IMG/VR virus record: IMGVR_UViG_3300024346_000003
Source: a virus
Lineage: Duplodnaviria; Caudoviricetes
DNA length: 64,000 nt
Strand: one strand, 5' to 3'
Part shown: positions 54,288 through 56,810 of the stretch, piece after piece
Numbering within the stretch: the stretch's first letter is position 1
Layout: every line of letters starts with the position of its first letter
Program-made: the position numbers and the translations under genes
Notes under the pieces: model-generated
Seen by the model: only the letters and a program-made list of their open reading frames with translations
Databases searched by the model: none
Told to the model about the DNA's origin: nothing

Positions 54288-54345
54288 AATATTTTGTTTT
54301 AATTAGACAATACAAATATAATAATATAAAATGATATATCCTAAT

Positions 54346-54645
54346 TTATTCTGAAATTTTATACAACATTAAAGTATATTCTTCTGTACTAGCATACCAA
54401 CCTCTTTTGTTGCACCATTTGTCAAATTTGATATAAACATCAATATCGTAATTCTTGTTATTGTATATGCGATTATCCAATGCACTCAAAGGGTTTGTAT
54501 CTTTGTCTGTGTATGGTACACTAGAGCCATTACGCAACCATATAGATTGATTAGGTTTATAATCTTTACTAAACTCACTACCACATTTAATTTCTAAGGT
54601 AGGAAATCGTTTTTGTAATTCAAATATAATTTCAGTGAAGTTCAT
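54346..54645 (-). CDS. hypothetical cassette protein
   Basis: own promoter. Confidence 0.65.
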   Translation of the reverse strand: MNFTEIIFELQKRFPTLEIKCGSEFSKDYKPNQSIWLRNGSSVPYTDKDTNPLSALDNRIYNNKNYDIDVYIKFDKWCNKRGWYASTEEYTLMLYKISE

Positions 54646-54822
54646 AATACTTTGTTTTAATTAGACAATACAAATATAAAACAATATAATGATATATCCA
54701 AATTATTTAACAAAAAAAAATGGAAACATTTCTGCTCCCATTTCTTTGTTCTTTGTTTGTCAACTTAAAACTCACCATTATGGTTTGCTTATCTTTAATT
54801 TCTATTATATAAATACTTTAGT

Positions 54823-55268
54823 AAAAGAATATGGGAGGTGGTTGTACATCCACCCCCCATTACTCCTTGTTCCATACCAAGTGCGCACCCGATACTTTAT
54901 TTTCCGCTGAACAAAGCGTTTCCATTTAAGTCCCATAATCGGCAACCAAGAGCACTCATCTTGTTAGAGTTACGCTTCAAGAGGTCATCTCGTTAGAGTT
55001 ACGCATTGAGACTATCTCATCTCGTTAGAGTTACGCATAACACTTATCATCTTACCCCACACAGAATGTGGTTACGAATCAATCCATTTCCTTTACTTAC
55101 GTAAAACAGTGATGGGTGTGTCAGAGGCTGTATCTCGTCTTGTTAGGTCTAAGAGGCTGTATCTCGAACCTGTTACATTATCGCTAGGCTGTTCTCATCT
55201 TGTTAATGATTGAAGCTACCGAGGACTTAAACTTCTACTATAGTATGTTAAAGAACGTTTTCCTTTTG
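54823..55268 (-). ncRNA. ~440-nt internally repeated ncRNA candidate
   Basis: TATCTTTG promoter at 55274-55281; no ORF of 60 aa or more on this strand; six TAAC(A/G)AGA(T/C)GAG-like repeats; GC-rich terminator hairpin 54833-54858. Confidence 0.6.
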
Positions 55269-55336
55269 TTTAACAAAGATAAGTAATTTATTTTAAACTA
55301 CCAAATCTTTTTGCAATTATTTTTAATTTTTTTTTG

Positions 55337-55439
55337 TAGTCAGGACAGGATTCGAACCTGTGAATCCTCGGACTAAATACTAGACTACCACCTGAGGACC
55401 TCTTTCTAGTTAGCGTTAATCCATCTCCGCCACCTGACT
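55337..55439 (-). ncRNA. tRNA-like RNA A with 20-nt expanded anticodon loop
   Basis: AGTCAGG/CCTGACT acceptor, GCG/CGC D-arm, ACAGG-TTCGAAT-CCTGT T-arm. Confidence 0.7.
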
Positions 55440-55526
55440 ATTTGTTATTCAAAGAACTTTAACAAAGATAAGTAATTTATTTTAAACTACCAAATCTTTT
55501 TGCAATTATTTTTAATTTTTTTTTTG

Positions 55527-55601
55527 TAGTCAAAATAGGATTCGAACCTATGTAACGATGTCTCTAATAGGACATCTGCTTTGCCACTCGGCCACTTGAC
55601 T
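55527..55601 (-). ncRNA. tRNA-like RNA B with non-canonical 8-nt anticodon loop
   Basis: AGTCAAG/TTTGACT acceptor, GATGTC-CTATTAGA-GACATC arm, ATAGG-TTCGAAT-CCTAT. Confidence 0.65.
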
Positions 55602-55688
55602 ATTTGTTATTCAAAGAACTTTAACAAAGATAAGTATTTTATTTCAATCTACCAAATCTTTTTGCAATTATTTTTAATTTATTTTTTG

Positions 55689-55746
55689 TGAGCGTTATGG
55701 AATCGAACCATACCGTATGACTCGCCATTGCTAACCCTAGACGCTC
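55689..55746 (-). ncRNA. minimal tRNA-like RNA (acceptor + T arm)
   Basis: GAGCGT/ACGCTC stem stacked on TATGG-TTCGATT-CCATA; under 30 nt between them. Confidence 0.5.
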
Positions 55747-55769
55747 TAGGCGTGCACACCTATTTGTAG

Positions 55770-55890
55770 TAGTCAGGACAGGATTCGAACCTGTATCAAC
55801 AGAATGTGTAACTACCTGTTATATTAAGCATTGTAGATTCGAACCACTCACTCTCTAGGCCTGTTGACTTACCAATTTGTCCACCTGACT
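55770..55890 (-). ncRNA. tRNA-like RNA C with 58-nt insert containing a second T-loop
   Basis: AGTCAGG/CCTGACT, GAC/GTC D-arm, AACAG/CTGTT stem enclosing GTGG-TTCGAAT-CTAC. Confidence 0.7.
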
Positions 55891-55976
55891 ATTTGTTATT
55901 CAAAGAACTTTAACAAAGATAAGTAAACTTTTCCAATCTACCAAATATTTTTGTAATTATTTTTAATTTATTTTTG

Positions 55977-56048
55977 TGACCCGACCAAGATTCGAACTTG
56001 GAATAGAAGATTAGAAATCTTCTGTGATATCCCTTTCACCATCGGGCC
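55977..56048 (-). tRNA. tRNA-Arg(TCT)
   Basis: GGCCCGA/TCGGGTC acceptor, GAAGA-TT-TCT-AA-TCTTC anticodon arm, CCAAG-TTCGAAT-CTTGG. Confidence 0.92.
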
Positions 56049-56111
56049 AAATAAGGGTTGTTCGAACTCCCTAAAAACCTCACCTAAGTTTTTTCTATGG
56101 ATATAGAAAAA

Positions 56112-56188
56112 TGGTGGTCCAACTTGGACTCGAACCAAGGACTTCAACATTATGAGTGTTGCACTCTAACCAACTGAGTTATAAGACC
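56112..56188 (-). tRNA. tRNA with CAT anticodon (elongator Met or Ile2), encoded CCA
   Basis: ACTC/GAGT D stem, CAACA-CT-CAT-AA-TGTTG, CTTGG-TTCGAGT-CCAAG, ACCA 3' end. Confidence 0.92.
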
Positions 56189-56294
56189 GTTTGAGTCTTA
56201 CCCCTCTAAACATTGATGCATTATCTAGAGGGGTTTTTATTAAGCGAAGACCACCGCTATACAAATATAGTAATAAATATTTAATCTTGCAAAT

Positions 56295-56810
56295 TTATTT
56301 AAACATAATTGTTGCAATTGTTAAAGGTGTTCTTGGAATTGGTGTTGAACCACAATTAAACCCAATGATTTCAAACTGTGCAATATCTTTACTTCCATTG
56401 CTAATCGGTTCAATTGGTGAATCGTGGAAAGCAATATCAGCACAATTAGCCATTTCAATTACAGAAATTGTAATTCTTTTACCACCCTTTGTTCTAATCG
56501 AAATTGTTTCATTCGAATTCTCACATTGAATAAATTGGTGTGGAAATTCTCTATTGAATATTGCGAACCCTTTGAACGCATAAATGATTTGCATCATCTG
56601 TGGTAAGAATTTTTCACTATTCACATCGTTTGACTTGTTAGTCACGATACCGAAATTTTCATCAGGGTTGCAGTTGTTGATTGCCCAAATGAATGAAGCT
56701 AAATCTCTAACTGTTGCGGTGTAATTGTTATTCATTTTTACATAATAACCATCAGACAAAATAATGTCCTTAACATTGCTTGGAATCTCGTACTCAAATT
56801 GCTTGTTCAT
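56295..56810 (-). CDS. hypothetical cassette protein
   Basis: 171 aa; own promoter. Confidence 0.7.
   Translation of the reverse strand: MNKQFEYEIPSNVKDIILSDGYYVKMNNNYTATVRDLASFIWAINNCNPDENFGIVTNKSNDVNSEKFLPQMMQIIYAFKGFAIFNREFPHQFIQCENSNETISIRTKGGKRITISVIEMANCADIAFHDSPIEPISNGSKDIAQFEIIGFNCGSTPIPRTPLTIATIMFK

Follow-up and report, generated by a model that had tools for sequence, protein, structure and literature searches.

Locus of the candidate RNA gene

The window, by which we mean the whole 64,000-nt stretch of viral DNA analysed here, encodes terminase, portal, major head protein, thymidylate synthase and NAMPT and has a G+C content of about 30%. It carries 46 Bacteroidota-type promoter sites compared with 6.8 expected, and among the IMG/VR genomes with a related terminase are complete ones of 288 and 340 kb. 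Based on the structural genes, the base composition, the promoters and these large relatives, the window is attributed to a jumbo phage whose host is an aquatic member of the Bacteroidota. DNA of this phage was found in lake, freshwater and marine runs from some 15 studies, and INPHARED contains no close relative of it. A candidate RNA gene is located on the minus strand at 55266-54823, with a Bacteroidota-type promoter at one end and a GC-rich terminator at the other:

54823..55266, minus strand: primary transcript, ncRNA of about 440 nt; start inferred from the promoter, end taken as the T-run past the terminator
55274..55305, minus strand: promoter, with -33 element TTTG (55302-55305), N20 and -7 element TATCTTTG (55274-55281)
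54823..54860, minus strand: 3' hairpin and U-tract resembling an intrinsic terminator; 11-bp hairpin (54860-54831), then ATTCTTTT

The hairpin at 54860-54831 followed by ATTCTTTT is the sole terminator-like site of the region. The ncRNA promoter, which is kept in the aligned homologues, is identical letter for letter over a 32-nt core to the promoter at 55463-55494 ahead of a tRNA-like gene. It is part of a 103-nt cassette (55236-55338) present in four copies within 55236-55978, the remaining three of which drive tRNA or tRNA-like genes. The sole match of the region in INPHARED, 75 nt at 81% identity (window 55258-55332 versus LR745206.1:420021-420094, a 635-kb uncultured phage), covers this promoter cassette and the leader just upstream of the RNA. 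An extra promoter cassette is found just upstream of the RNA copy in the homologous locus L213 (L213:4045-4140), where it drives about 90 nt lacking an ORF that look like another small RNA.

There is no conserved ORF in the ncRNA. Every lineage has 3 to 14 stops per frame, and the repeat periods of 29-35 nt are mostly not multiples of three. The initial annotation had named translation into short peptides as an explanation that would undo its RNA reading; all frames contain stops and no ORF accounts for the repeats.

Detection in environmental RNA

RNA libraries of three metatranscriptome studies were mapped onto positions 54300-56300. The RNA contigs, which as assemblies give no RNA ends, strand or level, all lie wholly within the candidate gene: 54863-55232 (370 nt, one difference), 54890-55147 (no difference) and 54879-55029 together with 55082-55232. 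The flank at 54300-54835 has zero depth in all three RNA runs, yet is covered by a DNA run. Since DNA contamination would not spare the flanks, the contigs represent RNA. The proposal would likewise have fallen had the region been untranscribed, and the contigs from three studies inside the ncRNA settle this point. This locus thus encodes a stable, folded ncRNA, at least 370 nt of whose transcript of about 440 nt are seen as RNA, and its abundance suffices for assembly from environmental metatranscriptomes in which neighbouring phage genes go unseen.

The contigs of 151-370 nt span several repeat units and the borders between units, so a long form of the RNA exists; short products may exist alongside it. 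Contigs of two studies end exactly at 55232, the first base of helix P1 described below, which is a weak hint at a processed 5' end.

Homologues and tRNA island context

Homologues were collected by one metagenome scan and two IMG/VR scans, filtered by blastn and nhmmer. They comprise the near-identical locus L117 and five diverged loci of about 73-75% identity or less, namely L146 (with L184), L148, L131, L213 and L214, all found in relatives of the same jumbo phage. The six aligned rows (window, L146, L148, L131, L213 and L214) represent five independent lineages of one phage group. A 20-nt part of the conserved 3' block of the RNA retrieved L213 and L214, and these two were also the only loci recovered from IMG/VR with T1 pair patterns, besides coding repeats. 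A T2 20-mer gave no match in IMG/VR and a two-core pattern gave five chance matches, while a 3' block pattern had nine matches in the genome collection, none of them related by nhmmer. The two complete relatives, G002 (288 kb) and G003 (340 kb), showed neither a BLAST hit nor the 3' block at up to 3 mismatches, and the RNA is therefore dispensable.

The diverged loci share the order tRNA-Met, tRNA-Arg, other cassettes, the RNA, tRNA-Leu(UAA) and a shared terminator. A position directly next to the tRNA-like cluster, as the initial annotation had described, thus holds as a tRNA-island position in all homologous loci. The class-II tRNA-Leu(UAA) genes (L146:1828-1913, L148:1451-1536, L131:1529-1615, L214:1617-1702 and L213:4807-4891) begin about 5 to 25 nt past the 3' hairpin in L146, L148, L214 and L131 and about 130 nt past it in L213. 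The RNA is co-transcribed with tRNA-Leu(UAA) in these relatives. The terminator closing this unit is retained in the window:

54710..54735, minus strand: second terminator, common to the homologues, where it closes the unit of RNA and tRNA-Leu (alignment columns 925-955)

Where the homologues have tRNA-Leu, an unrelated AT-rich sequence of about 95 nt is found in the window (54736-54830) and in L117; by sequence comparison, these two have lost the tRNA-Leu and kept the RNA. Three Leu-like tRNA-shaped genes are found upstream of the RNA in the window.

This arrangement could mean that the RNA acts in cis, as the 5' leader of a transcript carrying tRNA-Leu(UAA), controlling read-through at the 3' hairpin or guiding tRNA maturation. 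tRNA-Leu(UAA) lies downstream in 5/5 diverged homologues, and the U-tract after the 3' hairpin is weak in L146 and L148, absent in L131 and weak or absent in L214, with tRNA-Leu immediately next. However, the window and L117 keep the RNA with a good terminator despite the loss of the tRNA, L213 has a U7 terminator and 130 nt ahead of its tRNA, and the RNA contigs contain the RNA alone. We regard a leader function as quite improbable.

No neighbouring protein gene is conserved across the homologous loci, and a 171-aa neighbour protein has no relatives in IMG/VR. The cassette downstream of the RNA (promoter 54671-54702; 99-aa ORFan 54346-54645) is present in L117 and absent from all diverged loci. 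Several other small ORFs of the region (o86, o107, o149, o87, o155, o119 and o295) recur in shuffled order. The region is a mosaic of self-contained cassettes.

Conserved fold of the RNA

The predicted fold consists of an outer part closed by helices P0 and P1, an inner clamp P2 with a variable cap, and a conserved 3' portion:

55252..55256, minus strand: P0 5' strand, GUUCU, pairing with GGAAC at 54869-54873
54869..54873, minus strand: P0 3' strand, GGAAC, from consensus and single-sequence folds
55236..55245, minus strand: leader palindrome of 10 nt, UACUAUAGUA; an 8-nt palindrome, UACUAGUA, in L131
55214..55232, minus strand: P1 5' strand, GUUUAAGUCC and UCGGUAGCU, outer clamp; six pairs changed on both sides
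54924..54947, minus strand: P1 3' strand, GGUUGCCGA ... GGGACUUAAAU, from covariation
55118..55123, minus strand: P2 5' strand, UGACAC, inner clamp, pairing with GUGUUA at 55038-55043
55038..55043, minus strand: P2 3' strand, GUGUUA, from the consensus fold
55044..55117, minus strand: variable central domain capping P2, with hairpins P3 (55091-55106, GUAA loop) and P4 (55057-55071)
54894..54923, minus strand: 3' block GGAAACGCUUUGUUCAGCGGAAAAUAAAGU, 30 nt, A-rich, near-invariant; only L131 differs, at 3 positions
54876..54893, minus strand: hairpin with palindromic loop UGCGCA, from folds and covariation

Six alignment helices (P0, the two parts of P1, two 3' hairpins and the 3' terminal hairpin) are paired in 92% of cells, compared with 39-59% in slid-partner controls. 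Nine pairs are changed on both sides versus 2.8 in shuffles, and 0/500 shuffles reach nine. Many invariant G-U pairs fit the minus strand only. The z-score of the single-sequence fold is unremarkable (-1.55 on the minus strand, -0.43 on the plus strand). Covariation and the RNA contigs together bear out the minus-strand ncRNA of about 440 nt, running from promoter to terminator beside a tRNA cluster, that was originally proposed.

The window has UUUAAGUCC/GGACUUAAA as its P1 clamp, and L131 has UUUGUUUGC/GCAAACAAA. P2 reads UGACAC/GUGUUA in the window and UGCC/GGUA elsewhere and contains one compensatory pair (consensus 218-220 with 350-352), A-U in the window and C-G in the others. The 3' terminal hairpin (54831-54860) covaries as well. 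P0 is predicted in 6/6 single-sequence folds and in the consensus; it is near-invariant (one G-U change), and covariation neither supports nor refutes it. The hairpins of the central domain differ in sequence in every homologue and carry GNRA or UUCG loops. The leader palindrome could serve as a dimerisation site or as a DNA operator. In L214, an insertion of about 70 nt with its own long hairpin (L214:1195-1262) is located in the 5' leader between GUUCUUUGAAUAA and the conserved palindrome.

These data also bear on whether the repeats act at the DNA level, as iterons or operator sites, or belong to a short-peptide gene. At least six copies of the 12-nt repeat core and a DNA palindrome just past the promoter, TACTATAGTA, would suit iterons. 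The RNA contigs, the compensatory pairs, the G-U pairs possible on one strand only, the stops in all frames and the periods that are not multiples of three argue against both versions, to which we assign hardly any probability.

Repeat units and their two matched arms

Two kinds of repeat unit are enclosed by the clamps:

55123..55205, minus strand: T1 array, with T1.1 at 55186-55205 (degenerate), T1.2 at 55152-55175 and T1.3 at 55123-55145
54955..55036, minus strand: T2 array, with T2.1 at 55016-55036, T2.2 at 54984-55004 and T2.3 at 54955-54975

The T1 unit can be written as UAAC-N-GAYGAGA-(N)ACAGCCUCU in the window and as UAAC-N-GAYGAGA-NACAGCCUCU over the lineages, and the T2 unit as GCG-NNN-CUC-UAAY-N-GAYGAG-(CAC). 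Both contain a common core of 12-13 nt, UAAY-N-GAYGAG. The arrays are about 86 nt apart in the window, and the spacers between units vary in sequence and length. Two triplets of repeats had been reported previously. The second is fully recovered as a 27-nt unit that occurs three times, at 54956, 54985 and 55017, with spacings of 29 and 32 (TRF score 112). The first holds for two good copies, with ACAGCCTCT exact at 55123-55131 and 55152-55160, but its third copy, ending at 55186, is degenerate. The shared core reported for both is present, with the 12-nt core occurring four times, but it is better described as UAAY-N(2-5)-(G/U)AYGA(G/C), and the reported spacing of 29-33 nt is about right but the true period is 29-35 nt and varies by lineage. 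The five diverged homologues retain both unit types, with T1 units at 2, 3 or 4 copies, and the repeats therefore exceed chance.

Some T1 units can fold a small hairpin with an invariant ACAGCC in its loop, which lacks general support. It is extended in a few units only (4+4 bp in window T1.2, 6 bp in L131 T1.1 and 8 bp in L214 T1.1), and the unit hairpins never vary, so covariation is uninformative on them. At position 55148, the RNA contigs of two studies have C where the window and the compared DNA run have T, corresponding to A to G in the RNA strand. This difference is most likely a strain variant; it turns U-A into U-G in the T1.2 hairpin of the window, with the pair retained.

P1 and P2 clamp two antiparallel strands, of which the 5' strand carries the T1 units and the 3' strand the T2 units. 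The numbers of T1 and T2 units are equal in every row, being 2/2 in L214, 3/3 in the window, L146, L148 and L213, and 4/4 in L131. This matched-number rule rests on two independent changes, one to 2/2 and one to 4/4. The lengths of the two arms are matched as well:

Window: 5' arm 90 nt, 3' arm 90 nt
L146: 5' arm 97 nt, 3' arm 96 nt
L148: 5' arm 97 nt, 3' arm 96 nt
L213: 5' arm 90 nt, 3' arm 90 nt
L214: 5' arm 64 nt, 3' arm 64 nt
L131: 5' arm 123 nt, 3' arm 125 nt

Arm lengths correlate with r = 0.999 over the five independent lineages and differ by at most 2 nt everywhere. Canonical pairing between the arms was not detected by any of the measures used: T1:T2 duplex energies are no better than those of shuffles, in-register canonical pairing (0.34-0.41) is the same as in shifted registers, and the consensus fold of the T1 and T2 modules is about 0 kcal/mol under nested, forward and 30 random pairings. 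The window contains no complementary counterpart of either ACAGCCUCU or the T2 head. Nested or local pairing of T1 with T2 units was rejected, as forcing it costs 10-23 kcal/mol relative to the MFE. Energy models overlook non-canonical pairs and tertiary contacts, either of which the arms could make. Being conserved in sequence, number and length while lacking canonical pairing, the arms are most likely exposed docking sites.

Alternative readings of the repeats and palindromes

The main rival to a docking function is a self-assembling RNA-only particle of the ROOL/GOLLD/OLE type, forming oligomers via its palindromes with the arms as walls or contacts, which we consider rather unlikely. It would agree with the nature of the molecule as a phage RNA in a tRNA island, as are ROOL and GOLLD (10.1101/2024.12.08.627333), and with a leader palindrome that stays palindromic, at 8 nt, in L131. 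The loop of the hairpin at 54876-54893 is UGCGCA in four rows, or three independent lineages, and L131 contains GUGCAC within its loop; equal arms and a near-invariant A-rich block would also fit tertiary packing. However, the L213 loop is non-palindromic, about 0.4 10-nt palindromes are expected by chance in 440 nt by our estimate, and two studies have contigs whose end at 55232 lies downstream of the leader palindrome. The ROOL and GOLLD models are also unmatched.

The RNA could also imitate a type III antitoxin of the host, as a decoy of the pseudo-ToxI type, or another repeat RNA; its units would bind and neutralise a host endoribonuclease, and selection would alter their copy number. Phages are known to escape ToxIN via expanded ToxI-like repeats (PMC5086642), and units of about 30 nt in 2 to 4 copies behind a repeated promoter cassette would be in line with such a decoy. 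In contrast, the units found here are of two kinds, non-contiguous and separated by variable spacers, they are enclosed in a conserved clamp structure, and long RNA contigs cross their borders, leaving this explanation with a low probability. In 401 Bacteroidia genomes, a T2-like tandem pattern gave 30 matches in 24 genomes, not above a reversed-pattern control, and several of these matches are the antisense of tRNA D-arms. One chance match to the T2 pattern, unrelated to the phage RNA, falls in a Bacteroidia array (G272:C155:1093-1345) of at least 4 tandem 41-nt repeats without spacers, CTCTAATTTTCTC.GAGAGGT.TTCC.TT.CAA.GGAAGTG, which may encode a repeat RNA or represent an array of antitoxin type.

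Another candidate function is that of a decoy for the translation apparatus, in which T2 units would mimic 23S rRNA helix 69. The sequence CGUAACUAUAACG, which we take to be the 13-nt sequence of helix 69 (H69), differs from 8/18 T2 units at 1/13 positions. Mismatches number 2-4 in the other 10/18 units, the 3-bp stem survives in 11/18 units with no compensatory change, and by our estimate 4.4 kb of rRNA would yield one such 13-mer match at random. The CGU/ACG stem and 7-nt AACUNUA loop expected of a helix 69 mimic are not conserved across the units, which makes such mimicry highly improbable. Likenesses to the sarcin-ricin loop, the 16S helix 34 region, tRNA D-arms, the UAA/GAN loop motif and translation starts were rejected as chance-level or unconserved across units.

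Proposed function as a multivalent platform

We favour, at somewhat short of an even chance, the reading that the RNA is a multivalent platform, either a sponge or a scaffold, holding n copies of a hypothetical partner. A multivalent sponge had already been suggested initially; it still stands as the best functional guess and is made firmer by the matched number and length of the arms and by their lack of internal pairing. We hypothesize that the T1 and T2 arms would be sequence-specific docking sites acting in T1/T2 pairs. In the simplest case, the partner would be an RNA-binding protein, encoded by host or phage, that forms dimers and reads two facing cores per dimer, and the capacity of the platform would be tuned through the number of modules (n = 2, 3 or 4).

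It is conceivable, though unlikely, that the RNA is a modular molecular ruler in which n pseudo-symmetric core pairs, presented on equal and mostly unpaired arms, each capture one copy of a host factor. Such a factor might be a defence nuclease or a translation or RNA-decay protein, and the decoy capacity would be adjusted by the joint gain or loss of one T1 and one T2 unit. If true, tRNA islands would carry a new RNA device directed against the host and tunable by copy number.

Regardless of the partner, equal number and length in two arms that lack canonical pairing represent a strict rule begging a physical explanation. The RNA provides a small, tractable case with natural 2-, 3- and 4-module versions, and this module series lends itself to asking directly whether the number of bound partners rises with the number of modules.

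Comparison with known RNA systems

A cmscan of the window against Rfam 15 returned no family at the gathering threshold, and at E values of up to 10 the region 54500-56400 gave only tRNA and chance-level matches. The Infernal/Rfam check proposed in the initial annotation therefore places the RNA in no catalogued family, including ROOL and GOLLD.

Like the type III antitoxins (ToxI, CptI and TenpI) and pseudo-ToxI, which are arrays of units of about 30-45 nt, the RNA described here runs from promoter to terminator and has a variable copy number of its units. A hallmark of type III systems is a toxin endoribonuclease gene located directly downstream of the repeats, past a Rho-independent terminator, and their antitoxin units are uniform and form a contiguous array (PMC5086642). 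The present RNA differs in having no toxin gene, two unit types, variable spacers and a clamped fold, and unit-length processing is not evident from the assembled contigs. No toxin family of PADLOC, Pfam or PHROG was detected in 10 neighbouring ORFs; the downstream 99-aa ORF is missing from the homologous loci, where tRNA-Leu follows the RNA instead. The processing into short units that had been inferred by analogy with type III antitoxin arrays is not borne out, given the lack of a toxin gene and of a conserved downstream gene, the two kinds of units with variable spacers and the long contigs.

Phage tRNA islands keep yielding large folded RNAs of unexplained role, the best known being ROOL and GOLLD. 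Together with OLE, these have been shown to be self-assembling RNA-only particles, and GOLLD sometimes bears tRNAs in its linker region (10.1101/2024.12.08.627333). The RNA described here resembles ROOL and GOLLD as a large, highly folded phage RNA beside or within a tRNA island, and a similar context is found, with tRNA-Met, tRNA-Arg, the RNA and tRNA-Leu together and terminase, portal and capsid genes in the window. It differs in being smaller, in showing no sequence or structure match to either and in its occurrence in one aquatic jumbo phage group only. Clamped repeat arms of matched number and length have not been described for ROOL or GOLLD.

Phage T4 RNAs C and D (species 1 and 2) are stable non-tRNA RNAs of about 120-140 nt that are transcribed and processed with the phage tRNAs. 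They are likewise non-tRNA RNAs of a phage tRNA cluster, but are shorter and have no internal repeat arrays. CsrB and RsmY/Z titrate CsrA dimers through many copies of a short GGA motif, and 3'ETS-leuZ, derived from a tRNA-Leu operon transcript, is a tRNA-operon spacer that acts as a sponge for small RNAs. The present RNA shares with these the multi-copy short motif, which however is UAAY-N-GAYGAG rather than GGA and is displayed on two equal facing arms; CsrA and Hfq are, to our knowledge, not typical of Bacteroidota. Large folded RNAs are a known kind of molecule in phage tRNA islands; what is new here is the family itself and its design of repeats clamped in two equal arms.
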